DNA of 64,000 nt from Gammaproteobacteria bacterium (GTDB lineage: Bacteria > Pseudomonadota > Gammaproteobacteria > GCA-001735895). Below the pieces are notes generated by a model. The model was not told where the DNA came from, ran no database searches, and was given only the letters and a program-made list of their open reading frames with translations. Below are positions 2,098-58,596 of the stretch, one piece after another. The DNA lies in NCBI GenBank assembly GCA_024224415.1, contig JAAENK010000324.1, forward strand, positions 1,564 to 65,563. The letters are read 5' to 3'. The position numbers were made by a program, and so were the translations under genes. Positions within the stretch are counted from its first letter, which is position 1. Every line of letters begins with the position of its first letter.

Positions 2098-3567
2098 ATG
2101 ACTGATTTACAAGCACATGTTGAAGCGCCAGGGCGTGCAGATCTGGTTAAACAGGTTAGCGAAAAAATTAAAGAAACAGGCGTTGATTATATTTATTACC
2201 AGTTTATCTCGGTAACCGGTCGTATCGTCGGCAAGGGTATACCAGCAGCGCATTGGGAGCGCCTTGCAGAAAAGGGCTTCCAGCTCGTTTATGGCTCGAC
2301 AGCAAATTTGTTTGTCGATCGTCACGGTGAATACATAGGGTACGGCCCAGAATCATCTGAGCTGGTTGGTATCCCAGACCCGGAGACTTTCTGCCAACTG
2401 CCCTGGGATAAGCGAATTGGTCGGGTATTTTGTACCTTATTCCGCAATCGTGAAGAACGTGAGAACCCAGGTGGAGCCTTGACTTCCGATTGTCGTGGCA
2501 ACTTACGTCGTATCCATAATGAATTTCAGGACAAACACGGCCTCGATATGCGTTGTGGCACAGAACCGGAAATGATGTGGCTTAAACGCGGAGAAGACGG
2601 CAAGATGGCTGGCGGTGTAACCAAACCAAATTGTTACCACATCGATCAGTTCGAAGAGTTGCGCCCGACTTTCATGAAAGTCATCGAATACTCGCAACAA
2701 ATGGGACTCGATATAATCCAGGGTGACCATGAAGACGCACCCGGGCAGCTAGAGCTGAATACGCAGTTTGACGATGTATTACGTAACGCCGACCGTTTGA
2801 CCACTTATCGTCAGATTTGTGCGCAGGTTGCGCGTGAAGATAACTTGATTGCCTGTTTCATGTCCAAGCCATTCATGGGTGTTTCGGCTTCAGGCTGTCA
2901 CCACAATATGTCTTTGTGGCGCGGTGGCGAGGATGTGGTTAACAAAATGGGCATTGATAGCCTGCCTGGTATGGATGGTGCTTTTACCTATCGCGTTGGT
3001 GGTGAAAATACCTTTATGCCAGATCCTTCTATCGATGATCGTGCCCCCGGCCCAATTGGCCTGCATTCAATCGGTGGTGTAATCAAGCATCTCGGCGCAC
3101 TGACTTCTATTGGTTCATCAACGGTTAACTCTTATCGCCGTTTATGGGACACCGGTTTCTGGGCACCTATTTTCGCTGACTGGGGTTACCAGAACCGTAC
3201 CTGTGCATTGCGCGTATCGGCACCTGGTCGCTTCGAGTATCGCTCAGTTGACTCAATGGTAAATCCATACCTAATGGGTTCCGCATTGCTGAAAACATTC
3301 GACGACGGTATTGACAATAAGCTTGATCCAGGTGAAGCCGAAGAACGCAATATCTACGCTGCGATGGATGCAGGGAAAGAAGTAAAGAAATTGCCCATGT
3401 CTCTGGGCGAAGCGCTCGAAGAGTTGCGTAACGACGAAGTCATTAAATCGTCGATGCCTGGCGAAATGTACAAGGTTTTTGAACATTATAAGCGTGACGA
3501 ATGGGAAAACTACAATGCCACAGTCACCGACTGGGACGTTGAAACTTATCTCGACTGTCTACCATAG
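2098..3567 (+). CDS. gmaS: Glutamine-synthetase-family ligase, candidate gamma-glutamylmethylamide synthetase
   Basis: 489 aa GS catalytic-domain-like protein (type III/GMAS-like, no adenylylation-loop features noticed), immediately upstream of mgsABC as in N-methylglutamate pathway clusters. Confidence 0.6.
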   Translation: MTDLQAHVEAPGRADLVKQVSEKIKETGVDYIYYQFISVTGRIVGKGIPAAHWERLAEKGFQLVYGSTANLFVDRHGEYIGYGPESSELVGIPDPETFCQLPWDKRIGRVFCTLFRNREERENPGGALTSDCRGNLRRIHNEFQDKHGLDMRCGTEPEMMWLKRGEDGKMAGGVTKPNCYHIDQFEELRPTFMKVIEYSQQMGLDIIQGDHEDAPGQLELNTQFDDVLRNADRLTTYRQICAQVAREDNLIACFMSKPFMGVSASGCHHNMSLWRGGEDVVNKMGIDSLPGMDGAFTYRVGGENTFMPDPSIDDRAPGPIGLHSIGGVIKHLGALTSIGSSTVNSYRRLWDTGFWAPIFADWGYQNRTCALRVSAPGRFEYRSVDSMVNPYLMGSALLKTFDDGIDNKLDPGEAEERNIYAAMDAGKEVKKLPMSLGEALEELRNDEVIKSSMPGEMYKVFEHYKRDEWENYNATVTDWDVETYLDCLP

Positions 3568-3582
3568 CAATGTAGTCAAATG

Positions 3583-3602
3583 CCCGGCGCAATTGCGCCG
3601 GG
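3583..3602 (+). other. Perfect palindromic hairpin in gmaS-mgsA intergenic region
   Basis: CCCGGCGCAATTGCGCCGGG (10-bp arms, no loop), not followed by a clear T-tract. Confidence 0.5.
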
Positions 3603-3664
3603 TGATATGAATTCTTTAGTGCTGTGTTCGCACAGTAAATTTTTAATCTTAAGAGGAAATACTT

Positions 3665-4603
3665 ATGTGTGGTATTGCTGGACTTATCTGGAAAGGTGGT
3701 GCAAGCAGTGATATCGGTACAGAAATGACCCAAATGCTTCAGGCCTTGAAGCATCGAGGGCCAGACTCGACCGGTTTTGCACTCTACGGGAAAGGCGAGG
3801 AGGGCGTGAGAGTTTTACGTTTTAAAGTCGCCGAGCAGGAAGAAATGAAAACCGGCTTCGATATTCATAAAAAAGCGGTTGAACGTAAGGAAGCTGTCGA
3901 TGCGCGTTTGCTGGAAATGGGTGCGGAAATCACCGAAAAAGAAGATGCGACCGAATATGCGTTTCGTTATCACTTTAAATTCGATGGCGATATGACCCGT
4001 CTGATCGACTATATCGAAGATATCGACGGTGTCGAAATCCTTTCGGTAGGTAAGGCGCTGGAGCTGATTAAAGATCTGGGAGATGCAGCAGTGGTGTCAG
4101 ATCAGTATGGTCTGAAAGGTTTTCAGGGCACACACGCCATTGGGCATACGCGTATGGCGACCGAGTCTGATGTTGATATTCGTTCCGCACACCCTTACTG
4201 GGCTTACCCGTTTAACGATGTCTCGGTTGTTCATAATGGCCAGTTGACTAATTACTGGACTAATCGACGCGATCTCGAACGTCGTGGTCACCGGTTTATG
4301 TCGAATTGTGACTCTGAATTGATCGCGGTCTATATTGCTGATCGCATTGATCAGGGTGATGAGCTGGAAGATGCAATGACGCGTTCGATTGATAAGCTCG
4401 ATGGTGTATTCACTTACCTGGTCGCAACCGGAACGCAGCTTGGCATGGCCAAGGACGTGATGGGCGCCAAGCCGATGGTGTTATACGAAAGTGATGAATT
4501 TGTTGGATTAGCGTCAGAAGAGGTCGCAATCCGCAGTATTTTCCCGCGTGAAATTGACACCTGGGATCCATATCAAGGGGAGGTCAAAGTATGGGCAGCG
4601 TAA
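3665..4603 (+). CDS. mgsA: N-methylglutamate synthase subunit A (class-II glutamine amidotransferase domain)
   Basis: Starts MCGIAGL (Ntn-hydrolase Cys1), GATase-2 fold; first of three glutamate-synthase-domain genes split as separate ORFs, typical of mgsABC. Confidence 0.75.
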   Translation: MCGIAGLIWKGGASSDIGTEMTQMLQALKHRGPDSTGFALYGKGEEGVRVLRFKVAEQEEMKTGFDIHKKAVERKEAVDARLLEMGAEITEKEDATEYAFRYHFKFDGDMTRLIDYIEDIDGVEILSVGKALELIKDLGDAAVVSDQYGLKGFQGTHAIGHTRMATESDVDIRSAHPYWAYPFNDVSVVHNGQLTNYWTNRRDLERRGHRFMSNCDSELIAVYIADRIDQGDELEDAMTRSIDKLDGVFTYLVATGTQLGMAKDVMGAKPMVLYESDEFVGLASEEVAIRSIFPREIDTWDPYQGEVKVWAA

Positions 4604-5427
4604 CTACATCGCATGAGATGGGGCTGCATGAAGAACAGCTCGCGGGTCGTACCCAGCAAATGTTCTTCTCGGCCACAGAGGAGGAAAACTACACCTATCC
4701 CTGGTCATACGAAGTTGACATCGAGAAGTCGGCTGAGTTTGATGCTGCGGAGATGGAAATTTCTGAAATCAATCTCAAAATTCGTGAATTGATGAAATCT
4801 GGTCACGGTACGATTACCGTAAACAACCCGCGCGCCAAGCATTCGTTGGGTGTGGGCATTCTGAACCGGCTAAACCTGAACTTCAACGGTAGCCTCGGTT
4901 ACTTCGGTTGTGGCCTTATCGATGGTGCCAATATTCGTATTAGCGGTCGTGTAGGCTGGTCCTGCGCAGAAAACATGATGGCGGGCACAGTTGTTATTGA
5001 AAAGAATGCTGGTTCATTGTTCGGTGCGGCGATTCGTGGCGGCGATCTGGTTTGCAAAGGTCAGGCGGGTGCGCGGGTTGGTATCGACCAGAAGGGTGGC
5101 ACCATTATTGTTGGAGGCAGCGTCGGGGCTTTTACCGGTTTTATGATGCAGCGCGGACGTATGATTATCCTCGGTGATGCTGGTGATAACCTGGGGGATT
5201 CAATGTACGACGGTACTATCTATGTCGCCGGTAAGATTGCCAGCCTGGGTGTCGACTGTGTCGAAACCGAGATGACCGACCTTGATCGAAAATACTTGCA
5301 GGGCAAGCTGGATTTATACGGCATGGCTGCACCGAATGGTATCGACAACATGGTCAAGTTAACTTCGGGCAAGCAGTTGTGGAACTACGATAACCTCGAA
5401 CCAACAGAGAAGAAGCTGGTGCTTTAG
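4591..5427 (+). CDS. mgsB: N-methylglutamate synthase subunit B (GltS GXGXG beta-helix domain)
   Basis: Repeated G-rich beta-helix motifs (GCGLIDGANIRISGRVGWSCAENMMAGTVVI...GAAIRGGDLVCKGQAGARVG); 13-nt overlap with mgsA. Confidence 0.75.
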   Translation: MGSVTTSHEMGLHEEQLAGRTQQMFFSATEEENYTYPWSYEVDIEKSAEFDAAEMEISEINLKIRELMKSGHGTITVNNPRAKHSLGVGILNRLNLNFNGSLGYFGCGLIDGANIRISGRVGWSCAENMMAGTVVIEKNAGSLFGAAIRGGDLVCKGQAGARVGIDQKGGTIIVGGSVGAFTGFMMQRGRMIILGDAGDNLGDSMYDGTIYVAGKIASLGVDCVETEMTDLDRKYLQGKLDLYGMAAPNGIDNMVKLTSGKQLWNYDNLEPTEKKLVL

Positions 5428-5452
5428 CACGGTTTTTATTGGAGATTAAATA

Positions 5453-6793
5453 ATGTCTGACAAAAAAATTGATCCGTACCACCTGGGGAAAAGTTTTATC
5501 TTCCCGCCCGAGGTGATTAACGATATTCATGTTAAGTCTGAACTTGGGCGTTACCGTATGCGCGGTTTCTCGCTGTTCAAGAAAATCCCGACCTGGGACG
5601 AACTGACTTTCATGCCTGGCACGCTGACACGCTTCGTTATAGAAGGTTATCGAGAAAAATGTTTAACCAAAACCATTATTGGTCCGGAGGCGAAGAAGCC
5701 GCTGGAACTTGATATACCGGTTTATATTACCGGTATGAGTTTCGGTGCTTTGAGCTACGAAGCCAAGACCGCGTTGGCGCGTGGTGCGACCATGGCCGGT
5801 ACTGCGACCTGTTCGGGTGAAGGCGGTATGATCCCTGACGAACGTCGGTATTCAAGTAAATGGTTGTATCAATGTATCCAGTCGCGTTATGGCTTTAACC
5901 CTAACCACCTGCGTTTAGCTGATGCTGTCGAGTTTTTCATCGGCCAGGGTTGTAAGGTTGGTTTGGGTGGTCACTTGATGGGGCAAAAGGTTACCGACCA
6001 GGTTGCTGAAATGCGTTCATTACCAGCCGGTATAGATCAGCGTTCACCGGCCCGTCACCCCGACTGGATGGGTCCGGACGATCTGGCACTGAAGATTCAG
6101 GAAATCCGTGAAGCGACTGACGGGCAAATTCCAATTCAGCTCAAACTTGGTGCCGCGCGAGTTTACGATGATGTACGTATGGCCGCTAAAACTGGGCCTG
6201 ATTCGATATACATTGATGGCATGGAAGGTGGTACTGGTGCTGGACCTCATCTCGCTACAGAAGAAACCGGAGTACCTGGTATCGCCGCGATTCGTCAGGC
6301 ACGACAGGCGCTGGATGATGTCGGCATGTCGGGTCGGATTACGCTTATTTACGCAGGTGGTATTCGTAATGGTGCGGATCTCGCCAAGGCGATTGCCCTG
6401 GGTGCCGATGCGGTTGCAATCGGTCACTCGGCGATGATGGCCTTAAACTGTAATAAGGACATCCCCGAAGCCGACTACGAAAAAGAAATTGGCATAGAAG
6501 CGGGTTATTGCTACCACTGTCATACCGGTCGTTGCCCGGTTGGTGTTGCCACGCAGGATCCCGAGTTGCGCAAGCGACTCGACCCGGATACAGCGGCGGA
6601 GCGGGTTTATAACTTCCTGCATACACTGACAATCGAAGCGCAGCTATTTGCCCGTGCCTGCGGCAAGACCAATATCCACTCACTGGAGCCGGAAGATCTG
6701 GCTGCTTTGACTCTGGAAGCGTCTGCCTGTGCGCAAGTACCTATGGCTGGTTCTCAACACACTGTCGGTCGTCCCGACATGACACGTTTCTAA
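5453..6793 (+). CDS. mgsC: N-methylglutamate synthase subunit C (glutamate synthase FMN-binding/TIM-barrel domain)
   Basis: GltS FMN domain motifs (ITGMSFGALSYEAK, IDGMEGGTGAGP, IYAGGIRNGADLAKAIALGADAV) and C-terminal Cys cluster. Confidence 0.75.
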   Translation: MSDKKIDPYHLGKSFIFPPEVINDIHVKSELGRYRMRGFSLFKKIPTWDELTFMPGTLTRFVIEGYREKCLTKTIIGPEAKKPLELDIPVYITGMSFGALSYEAKTALARGATMAGTATCSGEGGMIPDERRYSSKWLYQCIQSRYGFNPNHLRLADAVEFFIGQGCKVGLGGHLMGQKVTDQVAEMRSLPAGIDQRSPARHPDWMGPDDLALKIQEIREATDGQIPIQLKLGAARVYDDVRMAAKTGPDSIYIDGMEGGTGAGPHLATEETGVPGIAAIRQARQALDDVGMSGRITLIYAGGIRNGADLAKAIALGADAVAIGHSAMMALNCNKDIPEADYEKEIGIEAGYCYHCHTGRCPVGVATQDPELRKRLDPDTAAERVYNFLHTLTIEAQLFARACGKTNIHSLEPEDLAALTLEASACAQVPMAGSQHTVGRPDMTRF

Positions 6794-6806: not shown

Positions 6807-7196
6807 ATGGCTGAACAAAATATTGATCAATTTCTCGAAGGCGACGGTCTCGATACTGAACGTGAAAAAACCATCGGTCAGCATATCGGATATCGTTATG
6901 ATGTAAACCTGGTTCCAGATATGGATCGCTGTACCGATTTCCTGCGTAAATATATGAACGTCATGGGCTGGACAGATCTGAACTGGCTGGAAGACGTGCA
7001 TATGGGGTATGAAGAAGGTAATCCGGCGGTATTTGATAGAAATATCAATGGCTGGGTGACCATTCCGGACAACATCGAGTTGCCCGATAATCAGCAGGAT
7101 CGTGACATGATTGCCCGCGAATTACTGGTGAAGTTCCAGATGGCAGAGGGTCACCCAATGGTTGACTTGCGTAAGGCTTACGAAAAGTTCGCCTGA
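6807..7196 (+). CDS. Hypothetical protein (129 aa), co-operonic with mgsC
   Basis: ORF 14 bp after mgsC stop with RBS (aggagg); no family recognised. Confidence 0.4.
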   Translation: MAEQNIDQFLEGDGLDTEREKTIGQHIGYRYDVNLVPDMDRCTDFLRKYMNVMGWTDLNWLEDVHMGYEEGNPAVFDRNINGWVTIPDNIELPDNQQDRDMIARELLVKFQMAEGHPMVDLRKAYEKFA

Positions 7197-7426: not shown

Positions 7427-8845
7427 TTGAGGATGGATAATGAACTAACGGCGCTCGGGATTATATTTACCGAGTTTTATTATTGGGTCACCGTTGTGTT
7501 TATGTTTTTAATACACGTCGGTTTCTGTATCTATGAGGTGGGAGCCTCACGATACAAACACCATACCCACACTTTGATGAAGAACACCATGGTTATCCCG
7601 CTGGTAACCGTTACATTCTTCTTTTTCGGGTGGTGGATTTACTTTGCGTTTGTCAATGGTCCCTGGATTATCGGTCCTTTGGTGGATGCTCCATTCGCTA
7701 CGCCATGGAGCGAGTTAATGGGTACGCACATGGGTGGTGCACCTCAAGAAGGAAGTGTCCTTACCGCCGACGATACTGCCTTTTGGGCACGTATTAACGG
7801 TGTTTTCTGGGCCGCCTTCCTGTTGTTCTCCTGGACCGCTGCCTCTATCGTGTCTGGTGCTGTCATCGAACGTATTCGTCCCAGTGCTTTCTGGACTCTT
7901 GCGGTTATCATTGGTTCTTTCACATGGATCATCGATGCGTCGTGGGGCTGGTCATGGAATGGCTGGATGGTACAGAAGCTGGGTTATCACGATGCTTATG
8001 CGTCTGGTGTAATCCATGCTATCGCCGGTGGTTTTGCACTAGGTGTCCTGCTCGTACTCGGTCCACGCATAGGCAAGTTTCGCGCAGATGGTACCCCGAG
8101 AAATATTAACCCGCATAACCCGTGGTTGGTAACAGTAGGCCTGTTCCTCATTTATACCGGTTTCTGGGGGTTCTACGTGGCCTGTAATATTCCGATCATT
8201 GATGTGTATGGTTCCGCGATGCTGGATGTGGCAGATAAGACTTTCTTTAGTGCAACGAATATCTACCTGCAGCCAACCACGCTCTCGGCAATCACCTTTA
8301 ACTTTCTGATGTCTTTGTCGGGTGGTTTGATGGCGGCTTATATCATTTCGGATGGTGATGCATTCTGGACTTACTCCGGTGGACTGGCGGGTGTTATTGG
8401 CGCCTCATCGGGTAACGACCTGTACCACCCTATCCAGGCTATGCTGATCGGCGGCGGTGGTGCCATCCTCGCCTACAAGATGCATTTCTGGGTAGAGAAC
8501 AAGTTCAAGATTGATGACGCTGTCGGTGCGGTTGCGGTACATGGTTATGCCGGTTTTTATGGTATTGTTGTGGCTGGTTTTATGCTCTGGGGCTATCCGT
8601 CGTCACCGTTTGAAGGCTATGCGACCATTTCTCCATGGGGTAATTTTCTCGGTGCTCTGATCATGTTCTTCGTGCTGGGTTTCTTCCCGGTATTAATTGC
8701 TTCGAAGATATTGAACAGTATGGGCAAGCTGCGTATTCCGCGTGAAATCGAAATGGTTGGTCTGGATATCAACCACGAATCACTACGCGCAATGGAAGCT
8801 GAAGAAGTAGCACAGGCTATTCGCGACGAAGCTAACAGCTCGTGA
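7427..8845 (+). CDS. Ammonium/methylammonium transporter (Amt/MEP family)
   Basis: 472 aa, about 11 TM segments, Amt signature region DAVGAVAVHGYAGFYG and conserved His; context suggests methylammonium uptake. Confidence 0.7.
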   Translation: MRMDNELTALGIIFTEFYYWVTVVFMFLIHVGFCIYEVGASRYKHHTHTLMKNTMVIPLVTVTFFFFGWWIYFAFVNGPWIIGPLVDAPFATPWSELMGTHMGGAPQEGSVLTADDTAFWARINGVFWAAFLLFSWTAASIVSGAVIERIRPSAFWTLAVIIGSFTWIIDASWGWSWNGWMVQKLGYHDAYASGVIHAIAGGFALGVLLVLGPRIGKFRADGTPRNINPHNPWLVTVGLFLIYTGFWGFYVACNIPIIDVYGSAMLDVADKTFFSATNIYLQPTTLSAITFNFLMSLSGGLMAAYIISDGDAFWTYSGGLAGVIGASSGNDLYHPIQAMLIGGGGAILAYKMHFWVENKFKIDDAVGAVAVHGYAGFYGIVVAGFMLWGYPSSPFEGYATISPWGNFLGALIMFFVLGFFPVLIASKILNSMGKLRIPREIEMVGLDINHESLRAMEAEEVAQAIRDEANSS

Positions 8846-8885
8846 TCATGATTACTTTGATAACTGAATATATGAGGAGAATATT

Positions 8886-9131
8886 ATGTCTACTGGTTTA
8901 GTTGACAATTGGCTCAATCTCGATCAATTCGGTGCAATCTACCCGTTCGTAGGAACGGAAGGATTGCTGACAATTGCGGGATTGATTTTCTGGTTTGGCT
9001 GGCACGTCTGGCAACACCAAAAGGAATCCACCGAATTTGATAATGATTTGGAAAATATTAAAAAGCAGGGAGGCGTAGGAAAAGTTCTTGAAGCAGAATC
9101 TAGCAGGGAAATGAAGGATACTGTAGGCTAA
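8886..9131 (+). CDS. Small membrane protein (81 aa)
   Basis: One hydrophobic helix (LLTIAGLIFWFGW); follows the Amt-family gene and precedes a strong terminator. Confidence 0.35.
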   Translation: MSTGLVDNWLNLDQFGAIYPFVGTEGLLTIAGLIFWFGWHVWQHQKESTEFDNDLENIKKQGGVGKVLEAESSREMKDTVG

Positions 9132-9163
9132 GATCCATAAGTAACTTTTTAGGATGTAGTATT

Positions 9164-9205
9164 GAAGCCCCTTCGGTTAATGATCGAAGGGGCTTTTCAT
9201 TTTTA
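9164..9205 (+). terminator. Rho-independent terminator
   Basis: GAAGCCCCTTCG-gttaatgat-CGAAGGGGCTTT perfect 12-bp stem followed by TTTTCATTTTT. Confidence 0.7.
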
Positions 9206-9225
9206 TAACAATTTAACGAGAATTT

Positions 9226-9723
9226 GTGATGATAGTAAAAGATGCGCTCTCAGTTATACCGGCGCGCCCAATTTTATATATTGTGCCAACAATCATCGTC
9301 GTGGTGTTGTCATTTTATTATTGGGAGCAGTACACAAAGTGCTCGGATATTAAACTGTTTCGTACCTCGTTAACCGAGACACTGCATTTGAAGGATTTAT
9401 CCGAAAAGTTTCGGTTGGTAGAATTTACCGACTTTATCTGGGACAAGGTCAGGATAGCGGTAAAAATTAAACCGGGAGAAAGGAACGCCGAATGCCCTTT
9501 TGGCTGGAACTGGGCCGAGTCGGAGCGAGAGTCTCTGATGGCTTCCGGGCTATTGACTGTATTGATGTTTGGTCAGGGAGAATCGATTGTGGGCTACGCC
9601 GAATTGCGCAGCGATGAAGTCGAATTTAGTGGGGTTGGTTCCAGTTTAACGCCAAATACCGCCGTATTTACGCTAGGAAAAAATTCCGATAACGGTGCTG
9701 TTTTACTGACTTTGAGTCGTTAG
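9226..9723 (+). CDS. Hypothetical membrane-anchored protein (165 aa)
   Basis: N-terminal TM helix (ILYIVPTIIVVVLSFYYW); AT-rich; no family recognised. Confidence 0.3.
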   Translation: MMIVKDALSVIPARPILYIVPTIIVVVLSFYYWEQYTKCSDIKLFRTSLTETLHLKDLSEKFRLVEFTDFIWDKVRIAVKIKPGERNAECPFGWNWAESERESLMASGLLTVLMFGQGESIVGYAELRSDEVEFSGVGSSLTPNTAVFTLGKNSDNGAVLLTLSR

Positions 9724-9875: not shown

Positions 9876-10754
9876 GTGGCCACGATAATTGATGGTAAAG
9901 CCTTTTCGGCGAATCTGCGTGCTGAAATCGCACGCAAAGTTGAAATAGTAAAAAAGAATCACGATTTAACACCGGGACTTGCGGTGGTGCTAGTTGGTGA
10001 AGACCCGGCCAGCCAGGTTTATGTGCGCAGTAAAGGTAAACAGACCGCCGAAGCCGGTATGAATTCTTACGAGCATAAACTCGATGTAGAGACCAGCCAG
10101 GCCGATTTGCTGGCACTCATCGATCAGCTCAATAACGACCCGGATGTGCACGGCATTCTGGTGCAGCTACCTTTACCGAAGCATATCGACGAAGAGTCGG
10201 TGATCAATTCTATCAGGGTCGAGAAAGATGTCGATGGGTTCCACCTTTCCAATGTCGGCAAGCTATCGATTGGTGCCGATGGTATTGTACCTTGCACGCC
10301 TCTCGGCTCGATGATGATGCTGAAAGATCAACTTGGTTCTTTATCTGGTAAAAGAGCCATTGTTATCGGGCGATCAAATATAGTGGGTAAACCCATGGCG
10401 GCTTTATTATTGGCTGAAAGTTGTACAGTAACGATAGCTCATTCCCGCACTGAAGATTTACCCGGTGAATGTCGACGAGCTGATATCGTCGTCGCCGCAG
10501 TCGGTCGTCCAGAAATGGTGAAGGGCGACTGGATCAAACCAGGTGCGACGGTAATTGATGTCGGTATCAACCGCATCGAAAAAGAGGATGGTGGTACCAG
10601 ACTGGTTGGTGATGTCGAATTCGAAAGTGCTGTGGCAGTGGCGGGCGCGATAACACCGGTTCCCGGTGGTGTTGGACCGATGACGATAGCCTGTTTGTTG
10701 CATAATACCCTGCAGCAGGCCTGCCGTTTGAATGGTGTTGATGTACCGGAATAA
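9876..10754 (+). CDS. folD: Bifunctional 5,10-methylene-THF dehydrogenase/5,10-methenyl-THF cyclohydrolase
   Basis: Full-length FolD with characteristic N-terminus ([19 protein letters not shown]), ...VYVRSKGK..., [23 protein letters not shown]. Confidence 0.9.
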
Positions 10755-11727: not shown

Positions 11728-12996
11728 ATGGGAATTACGCGAAGAGATATTCTGCGCGCCACGGCCGCAGGTGCTGTGGTGGCTGGAACTTCAAGTTTAC
11801 CAACCGGTTTATTCGCCGCTAGTAACAAAACAGTCAAAATCGGCATGAATATTCCAATGACGGGTGACTACGCACCCTGGGGATTACCTGGGTTATATGG
11901 TTGTGAAATCATTGCAAAGGATATCAACGGCGCCGGTGGTGTTGAAATTGGCGGTGAGAAGTACAATATCGAAATGGTCGCCTATGACCATGCCTACGAC
12001 ACTGAGAAAGCGGTCCAGGGTTACAAGAAACTGGTGCTGGAAGACGATGTCAAAATGGTCATGATGTTAGGTGGTTCAACAGTTGCATCCGTCCTGCCAT
12101 GGGCACAGCGTAAAAAGATGCTCACTACCACTTTGCTGCCTAGCGATATTACACCAAAATCTGAATATCTGATCGCTACCTGTGAATCGCATCCGTTGTA
12201 TAACGTTACCGGTGTCGAATGGTTAGCTAAAAACTTCCCTGAAGCAAAAACAGCGGCAATTGTTACTAACAATGATGCAGAATATGGTTTGCAGTCGGCA
12301 GCAACCTACAAGGCTGCCTTCGAAGTAGAAGGTATCGATGTCGTAGATGTCAACCTGCATGGTTTTGATATTACTGATTTCGCACCGATTGTGAGCTCTG
12401 TATTAGCCAAGAAACCGGACATATTCTGTATGGCGACCAGTTTCTATGTCACGCCTTTAATGGAACAGTTATATCATCAGGGTTTCAAAGGTAAAATCAT
12501 TTCCTGCACGCTGGATTATTACGATGAAATCATTGCCAAGACCAGTAAAGAGTTTGTGAACGGCACAATATTCCAGTTTCCAGATTTTGATGATCCGGCA
12601 CTGAACGACAAAGGTGTCAATTTTCCTGATCCTGGAGGATTCGACGCCAAGTTCCGCAAGGATCATCCTAACGATTGGTCGGCTGTGTCCTGGGAATACC
12701 CTGCCATTTTGCTAAACTGGATTGAAGGTGCAAAAGCGGCCGGCAGTGTTGAGCCAACTGATGTTTTGAAGTCGCTCAAGTACACCATAAATCCTGCCTT
12801 CGTATTCGGTGGTGGAAAATGGTGGGGCAGTCAGTTGTGGGGACGGGATAATTCGGTGGTTGGTCGTTGGCCTGTGGTCGTTGTCGAAAATGGCAAGGCC
12901 CGTATCCAGGAGTACAGAAGTGTTTCAGACTGGCTAGCGAAAAACAAGGATGTGCTCATTAAGCACATGAAAGAACTTGGTCTGCGTACCGTTTAA
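11728..12996 (+). CDS. ABC transporter periplasmic substrate-binding protein (HAAT family, Liv/Urt-like) with Tat-type signal
   Basis: MGITRRDILRATAAGAVVAGT twin-arginine leader; type-I PBP fold; followed by livHMGF-like genes. Confidence 0.7.
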   Translation: MGITRRDILRATAAGAVVAGTSSLPTGLFAASNKTVKIGMNIPMTGDYAPWGLPGLYGCEIIAKDINGAGGVEIGGEKYNIEMVAYDHAYDTEKAVQGYKKLVLEDDVKMVMMLGGSTVASVLPWAQRKKMLTTTLLPSDITPKSEYLIATCESHPLYNVTGVEWLAKNFPEAKTAAIVTNNDAEYGLQSAATYKAAFEVEGIDVVDVNLHGFDITDFAPIVSSVLAKKPDIFCMATSFYVTPLMEQLYHQGFKGKIISCTLDYYDEIIAKTSKEFVNGTIFQFPDFDDPALNDKGVNFPDPGGFDAKFRKDHPNDWSAVSWEYPAILLNWIEGAKAAGSVEPTDVLKSLKYTINPAFVFGGGKWWGSQLWGRDNSVVGRWPVVVVENGKARIQEYRSVSDWLAKNKDVLIKHMKELGLRTV

Positions 12997-13035
12997 ACGG
13001 GTTTATCTGCTATCTCCTTAACTTTGTTGAATCAC

Positions 13036-43376: not shown

Positions 43377-43378
43377 CG

Positions 43379-49218: not shown

Positions 49219-50526
49219 ATGGGATGTCAATATTTCGAACCATGTGAGCATGGCTCGGATAGTTTTACTGTCGATATTCCCAAAGTCACATTTGGTCGTG
49301 GTTGTTTGCAGGAAGCCGGTGCTCGGGCGGCGTCATTGGGTATGTCGCAGGTGGCCTTGTTTACCGATCCATTCCTCAGGGATGGTCCTTATGTGGAAAT
49401 CGTAAGTCAGTCGCTGAAGTTGGCGGGTATCGATTTTGCGGTGTTTTCTGAAATCCGTATCGAAGCCGATGACGCCAGTGTCGAGCGTGGTGCGCGCTTC
49501 GTCGCTGATGGTAACTTCGATGGAATGATTTCGGTTGGTGGTGGTTCGGTGATGGATACTGCGAAGGCGGCGATGCTTTATGCGCTTTATCCGACCGAAG
49601 ACTTCCTCGATTATTTTGCACCGCCACTGGGCGCGGGTAAGGCTATGCCCGGTGCTCTGCTGAGGCATATCGCTTGTCCTACGACTTCTGGCACGGGTTC
49701 GGAGTGCACCAGTATTTCGGTCATCCGTATTAACGAGCTGGATACCAAGTTTGTGCTAGCTAACCCGATTATGCTGGCCGACCAGGCGTTGATCGATCCA
49801 GCCTGTTGCGACAGTCTGCCCCGTAATATCGTTGCGTCTACCGGCTTCGATTTACTCAGTCATGCACTCGAATGTTATACCGCGAAGGCTTACACACAGT
49901 GGGCAAAAATTGAAGATCCGACCAGGCGTCCGTTGATTCAGGGGGCGAATCCCTGGAGCGATCTGGCGGCGCGAAAGGCATTGGAAATTGCTGGCAAGTT
50001 TCTGGTGCGTGGTGTGAATGATGCTGCTGATCAGCAAGCACGCGATCAGCTGAGTTGGGGCGCTTCGCTAGCAGGCATGGCGTTTGGTAATTCGGGTACG
50101 CATCTGGCGCATGCCATGTCATACGGGGTGACACATTTGATGCGAGACATAAGCACCAGGGATTATGCCGTCGAGTCGCCTTTTGTGCCACACGGTATAA
50201 GCGTGGTAGTGTCCGCCCCGGCAATTTTTCGTTATGCTGCCGAGGGTGCGCCAGAACGTCATATTGAAGCGGCTATGTATTTGAATGCAGATATGCAGGG
50301 TGCTGAAGTCGAGGATGCCGGTGAGGTAGTGGCTGGGTGTATTATCGATTTAATGAAACAGACCGATATGCCTAATGGCCTGTCAGGTCTAGGTTTTGGT
50401 GCTGATGATATCAAACCGCTGGCGGCATCTTCGATCCGCCAGGGACGCGCCATCGCCAATGCGCCAAGAGAAACCAACTTACAGGATATCGAAAATATCT
50501 ACGCTGCGGCGTTGAGTTATGATTAA
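49219..50526 (+). CDS. Iron-containing (group III) alcohol dehydrogenase family protein
   Basis: GGGSVMDTAK NAD motif, metal-binding His cluster (GTHLAHAMSYGVTH). Confidence 0.75.
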   Translation: MGCQYFEPCEHGSDSFTVDIPKVTFGRGCLQEAGARAASLGMSQVALFTDPFLRDGPYVEIVSQSLKLAGIDFAVFSEIRIEADDASVERGARFVADGNFDGMISVGGGSVMDTAKAAMLYALYPTEDFLDYFAPPLGAGKAMPGALLRHIACPTTSGTGSECTSISVIRINELDTKFVLANPIMLADQALIDPACCDSLPRNIVASTGFDLLSHALECYTAKAYTQWAKIEDPTRRPLIQGANPWSDLAARKALEIAGKFLVRGVNDAADQQARDQLSWGASLAGMAFGNSGTHLAHAMSYGVTHLMRDISTRDYAVESPFVPHGISVVVSAPAIFRYAAEGAPERHIEAAMYLNADMQGAEVEDAGEVVAGCIIDLMKQTDMPNGLSGLGFGADDIKPLAASSIRQGRAIANAPRETNLQDIENIYAAALSYD

Positions 50527-52940: not shown

Positions 52941-54440
52941 CTAAAATTCAAGCGCTCTGGATTTAGTCAAGCTCATAAAATACAGGTAAAATGCATAGAT
53001 AAGCCCTGCACCAAAAACTAGCATCAGTGCACCCCAGATGAACCAGTCGCTTTCCCATGCTCCATTCCTGCGTGGCATTCCAGCCGCACCAGCAGCCATG
53101 AAAGTATAGAATAAGCCGATGTAGGCAAGGAAAAAGTACTTGATACACTTTCTTGCCAGATTGTCATTTATGATGCGATTAGTCATTAATGGATAATGGT
53201 AGTAAAGCATTCCCATCCAGATTGCGCTTATGGCAATTAATACAACCATGGCGTGACCGCCTGCCCACACAGTGCCGTGTAGTTTGAAATTCCAGGCCAC
53301 GTTACTGATAACAATGGCTGAAACACCGTCTAATATATACATCACAAACCCACCAAGCATTAACATCAGAGCTGGGGATGCGACGATGCCGTGTTTCCAA
53401 ATTGTCGCCAGAATGGTGAATATTGTTAACGCAGCACCCATCGCCGTGGCATAGCTCATGAAATTGCCATGATATGCGAATGTCGACGGTAAGGCTGGAT
53501 ACATAGTAAAGAAATGATGGAAAAAGGAAGTGAGCGATGTGACCAATAATATCCATAGCGCCAGTTGAGCAATTCTGTCGCTATAGAGCTTGCGCGCGCC
53601 ATCGGCCAGACAGAGTGGTAAGGTGGCATAGACAGCGCCGATAACCATAAGCGCCATTGCTTCCATTAAATTGTGCGCAAAAATATAGAATACAAATTCA
53701 AACACAACGGGTTTCGCTGCCCAGCCAATCATTGAGGCTGGCAGAATTCCATACAAATGCAGTAGCAGGGAACCAGCTACCATTAATAAAGGAGTGCCGA
53801 CAACCAGTAGCACTAATACACCCATGACCATGCCCATCATGCCGGGGTCGTTTAACGAGCGCTCTGCCAACTGCAGGTTTTCATCTTTTTCATCAAAAAA
53901 AGCCATCTTAAGAATCTGGATAGGGTAGAGCAGGATCATGGAAATCAGCACCAGAGCGATGCCTGTAAAACCAAGAATCAATACCCACATGTCCCACTGT
54001 CCGGTTTGCACCCCAACCACAGGCAATGGGAACATTACGGTATAGGTAACATGAAAACCGGCCAGTACTGCGAGGGTAAGTAACAGGCCGCCGACATTCA
54101 TAAATATGTAAAACAATGCGACTAACGGACCGTCTGCTCTTTTACCCAGACAACCACCCGCGCGATGTATGCTCATAGCCACCATTAGCTGAAATGCGAA
54201 TGGGAATGCCATAGCCGCGCCATGCAGTGTTATGTTTTGATAATACCAGTTTGACCCCAAATCAAGGAATTGAATTGCTGGCATGGTCCAACCTAATATG
54301 ACCGCTATCGTGAACCAGATAAAACAGGTCATTGACATTAGCGCAGGCCATGCATTGATGGGGTTTAATTCATTGTCTTCGAGCCTGAACATGCTCCCGA
54401 AAAATGGTGTGTTTTCAATTATTCTATGGGCAACAGACAT
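52941..54440 (-). CDS. Heme-copper oxidase superfamily subunit I, divergent (NOR-like active-site features)
   Basis: 499 aa, about 12 TM; helix-II-like ITLHGAAMAF, FAHNLME (H-x3-E), FFHHFF His pair, and HGTVWAGGHAM where the canonical H-x-H reads H-A-M. Confidence 0.6.
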   Translation of the reverse strand: MSVAHRIIENTPFFGSMFRLEDNELNPINAWPALMSMTCFIWFTIAVILGWTMPAIQFLDLGSNWYYQNITLHGAAMAFPFAFQLMVAMSIHRAGGCLGKRADGPLVALFYIFMNVGGLLLTLAVLAGFHVTYTVMFPLPVVGVQTGQWDMWVLILGFTGIALVLISMILLYPIQILKMAFFDEKDENLQLAERSLNDPGMMGMVMGVLVLLVVGTPLLMVAGSLLLHLYGILPASMIGWAAKPVVFEFVFYIFAHNLMEAMALMVIGAVYATLPLCLADGARKLYSDRIAQLALWILLVTSLTSFFHHFFTMYPALPSTFAYHGNFMSYATAMGAALTIFTILATIWKHGIVASPALMLMLGGFVMYILDGVSAIVISNVAWNFKLHGTVWAGGHAMVVLIAISAIWMGMLYYHYPLMTNRIINDNLARKCIKYFFLAYIGLFYTFMAAGAAGMPRRNGAWESDWFIWGALMLVFGAGLIYAFYLYFMSLTKSRALEF

Positions 54441-54461
54441 GTTGGCCTCCTCAAAAAGTTA

Positions 54462-55013
54462 TTAGTTACTCGCAACTGTCAGCGTGGTTTTCATTGTATG
54501 GTGTGCTATGCCACAATACTCCAGGCACCGGACAATATACTCTCCGGGTTCGGTGAAGGTATGAACAAGTGTATTAGCTGTTTCCAGTCCAGGCATGAGC
54601 ATCATGGTGAAGATTTGTTGGCCATCTGGATGAATGATCGCAAAACTGTGCATGGTGTCAGCACTGGTTGCCGAAAAACGAACCGGCTCACCGACTCGTA
54701 AGTTTGTGTCGCTTATATCGAAAGCCCAGGATCTGGCTTCCACAGTCACTTCTTTCGCATTCCCTGTGCCGGCTTCAATGACTGTTGGCATGTATTGAAT
54801 GCTGGCAACATTGACGACGATAAAGGCGATTATTGTTAATCCAACCCAGGCCCACTTGGTAGATGAGTATTTGCTTGCCTCGGTTTTACCCGGTGTTGAG
54901 TCAACGAATGCCTTTTTATTAACTATACTAAAAAACACAATCAGGAAAGGGATTTGAAACATCAGCATTACGATGAATGCTCCCCAACCAGTGGTATATA
55001 TAAAATCAATCAT
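54462..55013 (-). CDS. Heme-copper oxidase subunit II with CuA centre (cupredoxin)
   Basis: Two N-terminal TM helices; HSFAI; complete CuA motif CLEYCGIAHHTM (C-x-E-x-C-G-x2-H-x2-M); 21 bp upstream of subunit I. Confidence 0.7.
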   Translation of the reverse strand: MIDFIYTTGWGAFIVMLMFQIPFLIVFFSIVNKKAFVDSTPGKTEASKYSSTKWAWVGLTIIAFIVVNVASIQYMPTVIEAGTGNAKEVTVEARSWAFDISDTNLRVGEPVRFSATSADTMHSFAIIHPDGQQIFTMMLMPGLETANTLVHTFTEPGEYIVRCLEYCGIAHHTMKTTLTVASN

Positions 55014-55038: not shown

Positions 55039-55647
55039 TTAGAAAACTTTATTTTTATAAGTTAGTTTTGATGATCTTGAGTCGATATAGGCAGTTAGCT
55101 CTGGAGAGAAGCCATCATAAGGTTCTATGCCCAGACTCTGGATTTGTTCTCTGATGCTTTTTAAATCACCTTCATTGGCACCAGACTCAACGATAGAAGA
55201 GACAAATCCCGCGAACTGAATGGCTGGCCAACCGTCATCCTTTGATAACTCGATATGAATAAAATCAAGTCCAAAAAAATGATGCGTTTCATCTTCCACG
55301 CGACCAAACATATGGTTGCCGCAGTCGCGACAGACATGACGTTGAATGGGCGCGCTTTCGTCAAGTATTTTTAGCTTGTCGGCATTTTTAGTGACCTCTA
55401 GCTTGTCACGTGGCACGACTGCAACCTGAGAAAACAGAGCACCCTCAGGTTTCCAGCACTGTGTGCATCCACAAAGATGGTTATGTGCAGCCGGAGCAGT
55501 GATTTTTATGACAACCGGGTTTTTATCACATTTGCAGGAAAGTGTTCCGCCGGGTTGTGGTTTATTGTTGAGATAGCCCCAAAGGCCCTTTTTTGCAGGT
55601 CGAGACTTAATCCCTGACTCAACCTCAGGATGTAATGGGTGTGGCAT
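55039..55647 (-). CDS. gfa: S-(hydroxymethyl)glutathione synthase (glutathione-dependent formaldehyde-activating enzyme)
   Basis: Matches Paracoccus Gfa as I recall it (GGTLSCKCDKNPVVIKI..AHNHLCGCTQCWKPEGALFSQVAVVPRD...PIQRHVCRDCGNHMFGR...AGFVSSIVESG), Zn-binding Cys pattern. Confidence 0.85.
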   Translation of the reverse strand: MPHPLHPEVESGIKSRPAKKGLWGYLNNKPQPGGTLSCKCDKNPVVIKITAPAAHNHLCGCTQCWKPEGALFSQVAVVPRDKLEVTKNADKLKILDESAPIQRHVCRDCGNHMFGRVEDETHHFFGLDFIHIELSKDDGWPAIQFAGFVSSIVESGANEGDLKSIREQIQSLGIEPYDGFSPELTAYIDSRSSKLTYKNKVF

Positions 55648-55888: not shown

Positions 55889-56524
55889 CTAGTTTGTTGA
55901 AGATTTGTAGTCTTTTGATTCAAGTGAAATATCTCCAGACATGCCCTGCCACATACAATTGATATGCTCATCATAGAGGTTTGTCAGAGGCTCATCGATC
56001 AGCCCGTCGAGACGAAGATGTATCAATCTAATCGCACCACCAAATATACTTGCGGCTACGACCCAGGGGCTGCCGTTGCGGATTTCACCTGCTTCGATCC
56101 CCTGTAAGACGATATCTCTCATCATGATAAATGGGGTTGAACTACATATGGGTGGCTCACTTGGCAGGAACTCCCTGTGCTTTGAGTGCAGCATATAGGA
56201 AATGATATTACGTCGGGTTTCGCTATATTCGAATAAGAGCGCAATGATTTTATTGCAACGTTCTCGATTAGTCATTTCATCTTCAAGTACAGCATTAACC
56301 ATTTCTTCAAATTCGTTTATCAGGTGATAATAAAGTGCTTTGGCAACCCCTTCTTTGCCACCGAAATGTTTATAGATCGAGCCAATACTGACGCTGGATT
56401 CCTTCTGTACATCGTGCACAGAGACATTGTGGAAACCGTGCTCTACAAAAAGATCGAGTGCGGCAGTTAAGACGCGGCAATCCAATGGTTCTGGCTCAGG
56501 GGCGGACTTAGTTAAATATGGCAT
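55889..56524 (-). CDS. TetR-family transcriptional regulator
   Basis: N-terminal TetR HTH (FVEHGFHNVSVHDVQKESSVSIGSIYKHFGGKEG); divergent from frmA. Confidence 0.75.
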   Translation of the reverse strand: MPYLTKSAPEPEPLDCRVLTAALDLFVEHGFHNVSVHDVQKESSVSIGSIYKHFGGKEGVAKALYYHLINEFEEMVNAVLEDEMTNRERCNKIIALLFEYSETRRNIISYMLHSKHREFLPSEPPICSSTPFIMMRDIVLQGIEAGEIRNGSPWVVAASIFGGAIRLIHLRLDGLIDEPLTNLYDEHINCMWQGMSGDISLESKDYKSSTN

Positions 56525-56628
56525 ATCTACTCAGGATACAAACAGGTTCTTGACGAGAACGACGATTCATTCTAGTCTACAGCGCTTGATTATTTTGTCC
56601 ATATGTTCATTCGCCAAGGTGCCTTTTT

Positions 56629-57744
56629 ATGAAATGCAAAGCCGCAGTCGCATGGGAACCCAATAAACCCCTGCAAATTGAAGAAGTCGAAGTCGAAGGC
56701 CCTCGTGAAGGCGAGGTCCTGTTGAAAGTCCATGCCTCAGGTGTCTGTCATACTGACGCATTCACGCTGTCGGGTGAAGATCCGGAAGGTGCATTCCCCT
56801 GCATTCTTGGTCACGAAGGCGGTTGTGAAGTGGTCGAATGTGGATCGGGTGTGAAAGACTTAAAGCCTGGCGATCACGTCATTCCGTTGTATATCCCCGA
56901 ATGCCAGGAACCTGGCTGCGGTTACTGTAGTTCGGATAAGTCCAACCTCTGTCAATCAATCGCCGGAACTATCTGGACTGGTTTTATGCCAGATGGCACC
57001 AGGCGATTCAAGGTCGGTGGTAAGGAAATCTACCATTACATGGGTTGTTCGACATTTTCTGAGTATACGGTCGTACCCGAAATCGCACTGGCGAAAATAG
57101 CCAAAGAAGCGCCGCTTGATATGGCTAGTCTGCTCGGTTGTGGTGTGACTACTGGCATAGGCGCAGTTATTAACACTGCAAAGGTTCATGCAGGTTCATC
57201 GGTTGCAGTTTTTGGACTCGGTACCGTTGGATTGTCGGTGGTTCAGGGTGCGGTGATGGCCAAAGCCGAGCGCATCATCGCCATTGATATTAATCCTGGT
57301 AAGGAAGCTATTGCACGCTCGCTTGGCGCTACTGATTTTGTGAATCCGAAAGATGTTGGTGGCTCGATCCCTGAATTTCTCCAGGAAATGACTGACGGTG
57401 GCGTGGATTATTCGTTTGACTGTACCGGTAATACCCAGGTTATGCGCGATGCATTGGAATGTACGCATATGGGGTGGGGTGTCTCGACTATTATTGGCGT
57501 TGCTGGTGCGGGGGAAGAAATTAAAACACGACCATTTAATCTGGTTGTGGGTCGTCGTTGGATAGGTTCGGCTTTCGGTGGTGTCAAGGGGCGCAGCCAG
57601 ATCCCAGCTATGGTTGATCAGTATATGAAAGGTGATATCGAACTCGACAGTCTGGTAACGCATACCATGCCACTTGAAGAAATTAATACGGCTTTTGACC
57701 TGATGCATGAAGGCAAGAGTATTAAATCGATTATCACGTTTTAG
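56629..57744 (+). CDS. frmA: S-(hydroxymethyl)glutathione dehydrogenase / class III alcohol dehydrogenase
   Basis: [22 protein letters not shown]...[27 protein letters not shown] near-canonical FrmA/AdhC; 371 aa. Confidence 0.9.
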
Positions 57745-57756
57745 TTAGCGGTCGAC

Positions 57757-58596
57757 ATGAAAGAAATAGAGAGTATTAAAGAGAGCGGTGGCTTTTTAAA
57801 TCGCTATACCCATGCCTCGCAACAATGCCAGTGTGAAATGACTTTTTCGGTCTACCTGCCACCCCAGGCTAGTAGTGGCAAAGTTCCGACTTTGTACTGG
57901 CTTTCCGGCTTAACCTGCACCGATGACAATGCGCGTACCAAGGCTGGTGCGCAGCGTTATGCTTCCGAGCATGGCATCGCCATCGTGTTTCCCGATACCA
58001 GTCCGCGCGGCGAGAATGTGCCCGATGAATCCGAACGTTACGACCTCGGTCAGGGTGCGGGATTTTATGTCAACGCGACGCAATCACTCTGGTCGAAACA
58101 TTATCGAATGTACGACTATGTGGTTAACGAGTTGCCCACACTTGTCGAGGCCAATCTACCGCTGTTACCGGGCGTTAAGTCCATTAGCGGTCATTCCATG
58201 GGTGGGCATGGGGCGTTAATTTGTGGTTTGAAGAATCCCGATACGTTTCGTTCGGTTTCGGCTTTTGCCCCGATCACCAACCCGGTTAATTGCGGCTGGG
58301 GGCAAGGTTGTTTTGGCCTTTACCTGGGTGAAGATAAAAATGATTGGCAAGCCTACGATGCAACCAGTCTGGTCAATGCAGGTGCGAAAGTTAACGATAT
58401 CCTGATCGATCAGGGCGATGCCGATGAGTTTTTACACGAAGGTCAGCTGCTACCAGAAAATTTCCAGGCTGCCTGCGAAGCGCAAGGGCAATCCTGTACC
58501 ATACGTATGCAGGCTGGGTACGACCACAGTTATCACTTTATCGCCAGTTTTCTTGGTGAACACTTTGAATTTCATGCGAAGTATTTAAAAGTGTAA
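57757..58596 (+). CDS. frmB: S-formylglutathione hydrolase (esterase D family)
   Basis: 279 aa; GHSMGGHGAL nucleophile; typical FghA/FrmB length; 12 bp after frmA. Confidence 0.85.
   Translation: MKEIESIKESGGFLNRYTHASQQCQCEMTFSVYLPPQASSGKVPTLYWLSGLTCTDDNARTKAGAQRYASEHGIAIVFPDTSPRGENVPDESERYDLGQGAGFYVNATQSLWSKHYRMYDYVVNELPTLVEANLPLLPGVKSISGHSMGGHGALICGLKNPDTFRSVSAFAPITNPVNCGWGQGCFGLYLGEDKNDWQAYDATSLVNAGAKVNDILIDQGDADEFLHEGQLLPENFQAACEAQGQSCTIRMQAGYDHSYHFIASFLGEHFEFHAKYLKV

Follow-up and report, generated by a model that had tools for sequence, protein, structure and literature searches.

Autotrophic methylotrophy, with carbon entry via the Calvin cycle, is established in Alphaproteobacteria, where Paracoccus denitrificans is the archetype. 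Within Paracoccus, the serine cycle is found together with the N-methylglutamate (NMG) and trimethylamine N-oxide (TMAO) routes, and strains possessing both cycles are classed as facultatively autotrophic methylotrophs. For a methanol-grown autotrophic methylotrophic Pseudomonas, cbbL mutagenesis identified the Calvin-Benson-Bassham cycle (CBB) as the route of one-carbon (C1) assimilation (PeerJ 2026, PMC12875217). Marine UBA868/Arenicellales combine methylated-amine oxidation with sulfur oxidation and contain RuBisCO in many metagenome-assembled genomes (MAGs). In UBA868, RuBisCO and sulfur oxidation occur together in many MAGs, and the Arenicellales count as established RuBisCO carbon fixers in the literature, while the cultured UBA868 strain IMCC57338 is reported to possess a complete serine cycle together with Sox/rDsr and no RuBisCO. 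Here we describe a 64-kb stretch of DNA (the window) out of a 67,057-bp contig of a MAG of an uncultured bacterium, labelled as marine Gammaproteobacteria (proteins MCP4188723 to MCP4188761), in which genes for methylated-amine dissimilation lie side by side with a form IA RuBisCO operon, as what appear to be two separately regulated capacities.

TMAO and trimethylamine (TMA) are abundant breakdown products of marine osmolytes, and CO2 fixation in the dark ocean and in sediments is under-explained. If TMA and TMAO supported autotrophy, the marine methylated-amine pool would be tied directly to dark CO2 fixation, and if methyl oxidation drove RuBisCO in a widespread clade, some of what is measured as "chemoautotrophy" would run on organic C1 compounds. 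The combination of amine oxidation, RuBisCO and sulfur oxidation is already known in marine gammaproteobacterial lineages, to which the window adds a well-resolved example. It joins the rarely reported O2-independent route via trimethylamine dehydrogenase (TMADH) and electron transfer flavoprotein (ETF), the TMAO demethylase Tdm with two glutamate-amine ligases, and a conserved form IA operon. Less ordinary are the TMADH-ETF block with its EtfD-like partner in a marine gammaproteobacterium, the presence of two glutamate-amine ligases, and a divergent haem-copper-oxidase pair beside gfa. Our literature search found no paper combining TMADH, RuBisCO and methylotrophy in Gammaproteobacteria, and none on CP070646 or 'Thiohalorhabdus methylotrophus'. 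Comparable metabolic mosaics are known from UBA868/Arenicellales and from SAR324.

With P. denitrificans the window shares Gfa, a glutathione (GSH)-dependent formaldehyde dehydrogenase, S-formylglutathione hydrolase and a CbbR-controlled form I RuBisCO, as well as the conversion of amines to formaldehyde. It differs in belonging to a gammaproteobacterium, in the form IA type of its RuBisCO (cbbQO), and in the entry of amines via TMADH, Tdm and GmaS/NMG instead of methylamine dehydrogenase; moreover, it is known from its genes alone, with prk, fdh and the remaining cbb genes not visible. The Pseudomonas is likewise a gammaproteobacterium using the CBB cycle for C1 compounds, but there the case was made with a mutant on methanol, whereas ours is a genomic inference on methylated amines. 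The original prediction, made from the same DNA, had regarded autotrophic methylotrophy as noteworthy should the host be marine or gammaproteobacterial; the MAG label agrees with both, while the Pseudomonas cbbL mutant had already set the gammaproteobacterial precedent.

Genes for oxidizing methylated amines and formaldehyde

All 56 non-overlapping open reading frames (ORFs) of at least 100 amino acids (aa) in the window were scanned against NCBIfam or Pfam profiles, and about 25 of them were assigned to C1-amine, C1-oxidation or cbb functions. Given this share, the recurrence of the Tdm-to-hyp129 core (see below) on JGI metagenome contigs and an independent 28.7-kb contig that covers TMADH through cbbO, the clustering is not due to chance. 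The original prediction had listed gmaS-mgsABC, tmd, the GSH-dependent genes gfa, frmA and frmB, the tetrahydrofolate (THF) C1 enzymes FolD, Fhs and a GcvT-like protein, and cbbR-cbbLSQO. All of these held up as detailed below (coordinates are window positions, with + and - for the strand), except that the gene at 2098 taken for gmaS encodes a divergent ligase and the canonical gmaS lies at 31242; the mgsABC-like genes were named correctly.

The 730-aa product of tmd (21342-23534, +) matches PDB 2TMD/1DJN with 1316 bits and is colinear with the enzyme of Methylophilus methylotrophus W3A1 over residues 2-729, with an identity of about 80% as counted from the printed alignment. All of Cys30, Tyr60, Tyr169, His172, Trp264, Asp267, Trp355 and Cys345/348/351/364 are conserved. 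In TMADH, Cys30 forms the link to the FMN (6-S-cysteinyl-FMN), Tyr60, Trp264 and Trp355 line the substrate (cation) bowl, and the four cysteines hold the 4Fe-4S cluster. Full-length similarity, conserved catalytic and cluster residues and an ETF partner thus identify the protein as TMADH (EC 1.5.8.2), as the original prediction had proposed. Histamine dehydrogenases reach only about 500 bits. A DgcAB-type dimethylglycine demethylase, considered for the set of a 730-aa OYE/FAD protein, a 739-aa Fe-S protein and ETF, was rejected on the grounds of the identity to TMADH and the complete set of catalytic residues.

The predicted electron acceptor of TMADH, EtfB (265 aa) and EtfA (321 aa), was recognized by the profile scan at 27179-28938 (+), 3.6 kb downstream of tmd; the structure of a TMADH-ETF complex has been solved (PDB 1O94). 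In between lie the gene of a 739-aa membrane Fe-S protein with a QmoC/NarI-like N-terminus, two [4Fe-4S] and two CCG domains (23543-25762, +; start codon uncertain) and that of a HEAT/LRV-repeat protein (25762-27144, +), which is conserved in the block and 55% identical in relatives. Upstream of tmd, a GcvT-family aminomethyltransferase-like protein is encoded (20024-21127, +), which matches the GcvT model and the C-terminal half of Tdm equally (245 bits each, both below cut-off) and is a putative THF-dependent acceptor of the formaldehyde released by TMADH. The complete block, in the order gcvT-like, tmd, Fe-S/CCG, HEAT/LRV, etfB, etfA and an EamA transporter gene, is found on two contigs of a relative (334 kb and 16 kb) with identities of 55-94%. 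The GcvT-like protein is 92% identical in the 334-kb contig L094, and the Fe-S/CCG protein is 85% identical and keeps its position in L094/L095. W3A1, a freshwater betaproteobacterium using the ribulose monophosphate (RuMP) cycle, likewise has EtfB and EtfA alongside TMADH; by comparison, the window belongs to a marine gammaproteobacterium, and its cluster adds the GcvT-like, EtfD/DgcB-like and HEAT-repeat genes.

The order tmd, Fe-S/CCG, HEAT/LRV, etfBA is constant where read (window 23543-27144; L094 12267-15817). Since the Fe-S/CCG and HEAT/LRV genes always lie between tmd and etfBA, this arrangement suggests a dedicated ETF-to-quinone exit for the electrons of TMADH, in which the membrane protein would be a putative EtfD/DgcB-like ETF:quinone oxidoreductase; we take its architecture to resemble that of mycobacterial EtfD and Pseudomonas DgcB. 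To our knowledge, such an exit has not been described for TMADH so far, and neither have roles of GcvT-like, EtfD/DgcB-like and HEAT-repeat proteins together with this enzyme. The gcvT-like gene and tmd are adjacent in the window, unlike in L094, where an insertion sequence element (rve integrase with HTH_38), a LysR gene and three small ORFs lie between them (8428-9588).

The second amine module occupies the start of the window. The gene for Tdm (2-928, -) extends past the window start; its N-terminal 309 aa are 100% identical to residues 1-309 of the protein on contig L002, and the full-length protein, read from an identical contig, passes the NF053776 cut-off of 1100 with 1210.8 bits. Beyond a divergently oriented GntR/FCD-family regulator gene (941-1756, -; true start probably at 1669) follows the gene of a divergent glutamine-synthetase-like amine ligase of 489 aa, here named GS489 (2098-3567, +). 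With 300 bits to TIGR03105 (cut-off 469.6) and only 174 bits to the solved GmaS structure 7CQL, GS489 was rejected as an orthologue of characterized GmaS (gamma-glutamylmethylamide synthetase). It shares 30-31% identity with the canonical GmaS that the window also encodes (438 aa; 31242-32558, +). The latter reaches 673 bits against the same model, and its matches to 7CQL and to 9QUR, a 'glutamate--methylamine ligase', score 619 and 364 bits, respectively.

Downstream of GS489, mgsA-, mgsB- and mgsC-like genes (3665-6793, +) encode the complete three-subunit domain architecture of an NMG synthase (GATase class II, GXGXG and GltS FMN domain). As the libraries used hold no curated equivalog, their putative function is derived from architecture and context. 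They are always followed by hyp129 (6807-7196, +), a conserved 129-aa protein without family match that is 75-92% identical at the equivalent position on many marine metagenome contigs and in the UBA868 isolate nBUS_48. Then come an Amt-family transporter (7427-8845, +; TIGR00836, 170.6 bits, below cut-off), a putative methylammonium/ammonium carrier kept after mgs on many contigs, and hyp165 (9226-9723), a 165-aa protein without family match. The latter lies between amt and folD and keeps this position on many marine metagenome contigs at 31-56% identity. FolD, the methylene-THF dehydrogenase/cyclohydrolase, ends the series (9876-10754, +; 495 bits, cut-off 396).

Tdm, GntR, GS489-mgsA-mgsB-mgsC-hyp129, Amt, hyp165 and FolD form a widespread marine module. 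Among the longer JGI metagenome contigs examined, about 25 carry its core from Tdm to hyp129, of which about 17 reach Amt and 11 reach FolD, and GntR is kept between tdm and GS489 on about 30 longer contigs examined. GS489 is 91-96% and MgsC 92-96% identical on about 20 JGI contigs, and three more carry GS489 at 77-78%. Where GS489 is at least 91% identical, the mgsABC-like products are 86-96% identical; for Tdm, the identity on JGI contigs is in most cases 76-79%. In nBUS_48, the order is GntR-DAO-GS489-mgsABC-hyp129-FolD-Fhs, with GS489 91%, the mgsABC-like products 71-89%, and the GS489-to-hyp129 set as a whole 71-91% identical to the window. This context, with FolD and Fhs after the module, supports a role of GS489/MgsABC in passing methyl groups to THF. 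The window shares with UBA868 (IMCC57338, nBUS_48) the marine habitat and amine oxidation via gamma-glutamylmethylamide and NMG, and with nBUS_48 the module itself. Differences are that FolD of nBUS_48 is only 40% identical to that of the window, and that nBUS_48 has a DAO gene beside GntR, where the window has tdm and no DAO. The cultured UBA868 have the serine cycle and no RuBisCO, whereas the window encodes RuBisCO; compared with the UBA868 isolates, it also adds TMADH-ETF and the second, canonical GmaS.

Canonical gmaS lies elsewhere in the window, preceded by an HTH-cupin regulator gene (30452-31132, +) and directly upstream of fhs (formate-tetrahydrofolate ligase; 32727-34412, +; 909 bits, cut-off 652). 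In relatives, the HTH-cupin gene precedes mgsABC-gmaS, and the order HTH-cupin-mgsABC-gmaS-fhs is kept beside typA. Because relatives carry mgsABC (L098, 10645-19837; L008) where the window has a gap of only 109 bp (31133-31241), gene order indicates that the canonical mgsABC was deleted from the window's lineage, with the UBA868-type GS489-mgsABC as the sole remaining copy. L098 carries an extra GltS-like set between HTH-cupin and gmaS.

All three proteins of the GSH-dependent route score above their curated equivalog cut-offs, namely Gfa, the S-(hydroxymethyl)glutathione synthase (55039-55647, -; 252 bits, cut-off 249), FrmA, the class III alcohol dehydrogenase acting as GSH-dependent formaldehyde dehydrogenase (56629-57744, +; 605 bits, cut-off 544), and FrmB, the S-formylglutathione hydrolase (57757-58596, +; 407 bits, cut-off 282).

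The profile scan of the 56 ORFs yielded no enzyme converting dimethylamine (DMA) to monomethylamine (MMA), no NMG dehydrogenase (MgdABCD, sarcosine-oxidase-like or DAO) and no formate dehydrogenase in the window. A DAO-type candidate NMG dehydrogenase, present in nBUS_48 and in more distant versions of the module, is absent from the window's cluster, and on related metagenome contigs tmm, dmm, mgd and fdh were not found beyond tdm, where only unrelated genes occur.

The cbb operon and its neighbourhood

CbbL (472 aa) and CbbS (118 aa) are encoded at 40704-42493 (+), followed by the RuBisCO activase pair CbbQ (AAA+; PF08406, CbbQ_C) and CbbO (VWA) at 42570-45724 (+). The divergently oriented LysR-type gene cbbR (39690-40610, -) matches the CbbR model with 264 bits, which falls short of the cut-off. 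CbbL reaches 803 bits (cut-off 438) and its catalytic motifs are intact, including GGGTLGHP and the motif with the carbamylated Lys. Intact motifs, a small subunit of about 118 aa, cbbQ and cbbO downstream and a divergent cbbR identify the enzyme as a non-carboxysomal form IA RuBisCO, and no carboxysome shell genes were found among the ORFs scanned. The nearest CbbL sequences (90-92% identical) stem from Marichromatium, Thiolapillus and similar organisms. In other organisms, the genes of the closest CbbL homologues stand in unrelated contexts.

The housekeeping protein TypA/BipA (35468-37318, -) served as anchor for synteny and relatedness. Its identity to cultured genera found is at most 75% (Plasticicumulans, Aliikangiella, Thioalkalivibrio); it rises to 82-91% in MAGs from sediment, seep and biofilter, and to 93-94% on three long contigs, which represent the closest relatives. 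No Arenicellales name is among the best 120 TypA matches listed, all at least 85% identical. The UBA868-like part of the window is the GS489-mgs module only (71-91% identical to nBUS_48). Four further contigs with TypA 84-89% identical to that of the clade (L007, L008, L010, L017) stem from MAGs labelled Urechidicola, Acidimicrobiia, Polaribacter and Haliangium; these labels are probably binning contamination of public MAGs. Three of the four (L007, L008 and L010) also show the gmaS-fhs synteny.

All three closest relatives carry cbbR-cbbLSQ(O) upstream of typA at a distance of 0-7.6 kb, with CbbL 88-97% and CbbR 79-83% identical to the window and with differing filler genes. Relatives with TypA of 82-91% keep gmaS-fhs-typA but have no cbb genes near typA. 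From these latter relatives the idea had first been drawn that the segment 37432-46941 (two aguA genes, cbbR and cbbLSQO) is a recent island between typA and an alpha/beta-hydrolase gene. It was rejected because the three closer relatives carry cbb beside typA and the GC content at third codon positions (GC3) is uniform. Overall GC amounts to 44-53% without compositional break, and GC3 is uniform between modules, with the cbb genes at +0.5 to +1.4 standard deviations from the window mean, so that there is no sign of recent transfer. With cbb beside typA in all three relatives of TypA 93-94%, its acquisition is old for the clade, and comparative gene order identifies the operon as a vertically kept trait of a genus-level clade rather than a recent island.

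As the cbb genes stay beside typA while the nearby amine genes vary in the three close relatives, the adjacency of amine and cbb genes looks like a shared neighbourhood and not like an operon or regulon. The regulators are separate for each module, with CbbR for cbb and GntR, NarL-type, HTH-cupin and TetR regulators for the C1 modules. Further relatives with long sequences are ENA ERZ25072483 contig_51 (576 kb) and JGI 3300021152 Ga0216256_1000017 (334 kb). In one of the close relatives (2.57 Mb; ENA ERZ21270619, scaffold_5644; L092/L097), no amine gene lies closer to typA than 10 kb.

This relative carries a duplicated cbbQ-cbbO pair (cbbLSQOQO), followed by genes for NAD_binding_2, a DUF1537-type kinase, a class II aldolase and AP_endonuc_2, which resemble threonate/erythronate-type four-carbon sugar-acid catabolism; downstream of cbbQO, L097 thus holds sugar-acid genes, TerB and the same hydrolase as the window. 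Neither prk nor other CBB genes lie within 10 kb beyond cbbO in L097, while the other two close relatives are visible only to cbbQ. No phosphoribulokinase turned up among the 56 ORFs scanned, and a phosphoribulokinase sequence used as probe gave no match in the window or in the 96 loci analysed. In the gap between typA and cbbR, the window genome alone carries two agmatine-deiminase-like genes (PAD_porph, aguA; 37432-39684); in relatives this variable slot holds arginase, methyltransferase or MocR-type genes, or is empty.

Methyl oxidation and carbon fixation

Starting from the gene identities, intact catalytic residues and synteny described above, we infer the electron route, flux direction and physiology as follows. 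Tdm would convert TMAO to DMA and a C1 unit, and TMADH would convert TMA to DMA and formaldehyde without requiring O2, passing its electrons to its own EtfAB and from there to the quinone pool, in a putative last leg via the membrane Fe-S/CCG protein encoded next to it. The GcvT-like protein probably loads the C1 unit or formaldehyde onto THF. MMA, for which the Amt-like protein may serve as importer of methylammonium, would be ligated to glutamate by GmaS and/or GS489, and the resulting gamma-glutamylmethylamide then probably converted to NMG by the MgsABC-like proteins. Methylene-THF would yield formate and ATP via FolD and Fhs, whereas free formaldehyde would be oxidized to formate via Gfa, FrmA and FrmB. 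The cbbLSQO genes, under their own CbbR and apparently inherited vertically beside typA in the genus-level clade, would provide CO2 fixation in addition, with methyl groups burned for energy and nitrogen. Oxidation of methyl groups may thereby help to power the Calvin cycle, i.e. facultative autotrophic methylotrophy.

Our favoured reading, to which we assign a probability of roughly one half, is a flexible mixotroph: its methyl oxidation would not be dedicated to CO2 fixation but may contribute to it. In this view, RuBisCO does not belong to the amine pathway as a dedicated component, and further electron donors or assimilation routes are likely to be encoded elsewhere in the genome. The close relative with cbb beside typA and no nearby amine genes speaks for this reading. 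Several points weigh against it. Genes for sox, dsr, hydrogenase or alternative assimilation were seen neither in the window nor in about 100 kb of relatives' sequence, so that the mixotroph rests on analogy. Two genomes have their amine and cbb genes side by side on a stretch of about 60 kb, which could reflect functional selection, and Gfa-FrmA-FrmB together with RuBisCO is a hallmark of Paracoccus. Finally, the clade is not placed in the Arenicellales, with only the GS489-mgs module being UBA868-like and no named Arenicellales TypA within 85%.

The original prediction went further and drew a line from methylated amines via formaldehyde and CO2 to the Calvin cycle. Hereof, the demethylation route, the GSH- and THF-dependent formaldehyde routes and RuBisCO with its activase were recovered, while the step from DMA to MMA, NMG dehydrogenase, formate dehydrogenase and prk are not in the window. 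Strict autotrophic methylotrophy of the Paracoccus type, with amines oxidized fully to CO2 and the Calvin cycle as the only carbon entry, is a rather doubtful reading, although it fits much of the gene content: 64 kb hold both formaldehyde oxidation routes together with a form IA RuBisCO that is intact and has its activase, the 334-kb contig of a close relative shows the amine and cbb neighbourhood again, and precedents exist in P. denitrificans and in the gammaproteobacterial Pseudomonas. A further point in favour is that marine genomes encoding RuBisCO hardly ever lack prk. As predicted, no RuMP (hps/phi) or serine-cycle enzymes matched any of the 56 ORFs; this agrees with strict autotrophy, but it carries almost no weight because the window covers only about 2% of a genome of roughly 2.6-3.7 Mb. 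Against exclusive use of the Calvin cycle stand, besides the missing steps, the separate regulator of cbb and its fixed position while amine genes vary in relatives. Moreover, a complete serine cycle is reported for a cultured strain of UBA868, the family to which nBUS_48 with its matching GS489-mgs module belongs, and the NMG and TMAO routes accompany that cycle in Paracoccus as well. Autotrophic methylotrophy as such agrees with the data and is a plausible trait of the window organism. Its most far-reaching version appears unlikely to us, namely a true autotrophic methylotroph on TMA and TMAO of a marine, probably benthic or low-oxygen genus, in which the RuBisCO beside typA would be the sole carbon entry, supplied via TMADH-ETF-EtfD-like, THF and GSH routes.

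Alternatively, RuBisCO might serve inorganic donors only (reduced sulfur, H2), with methyl carbon being respired or assimilated via a serine cycle encoded elsewhere. The nearest CbbL sequences are those of sulfur oxidizers (Marichromatium, Thiolapillus and others), and the conservation of cbb does not depend on the amine genes. The literature describes Sox/rDsr, RuBisCO in many MAGs and the serine cycle in isolates for UBA868, and lists Arenicellales among the RuBisCO carbon fixers. Yet no sulfur-oxidation, hydrogenase or serine-cycle gene occurs in any sequence of the clade that was read, and membership of the clade in UBA868/Arenicellales is unproven; we judge this explanation improbable. 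An assembly or binning artefact, or a cbb operon that is a non-functional remnant, is highly improbable: the source is a MAG and several related contigs are mis-binned (in Flavobacteriia, Acidimicrobiia and Haliangium MAGs), but every gene lies on a single 67-kb contig, the stretch from TMADH to cbbO is found at 100% protein identity on a 28.7-kb contig assembled independently elsewhere, the typA-cbb arrangement is repeated on the three long contigs of relatives, and CbbL has intact motifs and is 88-97% conserved, with no frameshifts seen in cbb. Identical protein sets occur on shorter contigs from four very large assemblies, the 28.7-kb contig being one of these.

Further genes of the window

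Candidate regulators of the TMADH block, comprising a PAS-GGDEF protein, a NarL-type response regulator and a truncated NarX/Q-like kinase, are encoded at 16487-19844 (-), and the same order is found upstream of gcvT-like/TMADH in L094. A TetR-family regulator gene (55889-56524, -) lies between gfa and frmA. Between folD and the PAS-GGDEF/NarL/NarX genes, the profile scan located a five-gene Liv/Urt-type ABC transporter (11728-16475, +). Adjacent to typA, a GGACT-family protein (34960-35493, -; PF06094), which is gamma-glutamylamine cyclotransferase-like, is encoded and accompanies typA/fhs in most relatives. Scans of the window for tRNAs and Rfam families gave zero matches.

At 49219-50526, the window encodes a 435-aa alcohol dehydrogenase of the iron-containing type (family III); its best partial matches are the models for choline, lactaldehyde and NDMA-methanol dehydrogenase, all below cut-off, and it is 74% identical in L014 and L015. 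Directly downstream of gfa and on the same strand, a very divergent haem-copper-oxidase pair is found (52941-55013, -), consisting of a subunit I-like protein of 499 aa (best PDB E-value 2e-8; 84 bits to the CtaD model, cut-off 671) and a subunit II-like protein of 183 aa. This pair could represent an unusual oxidase or a nitric oxide reductase-type enzyme.

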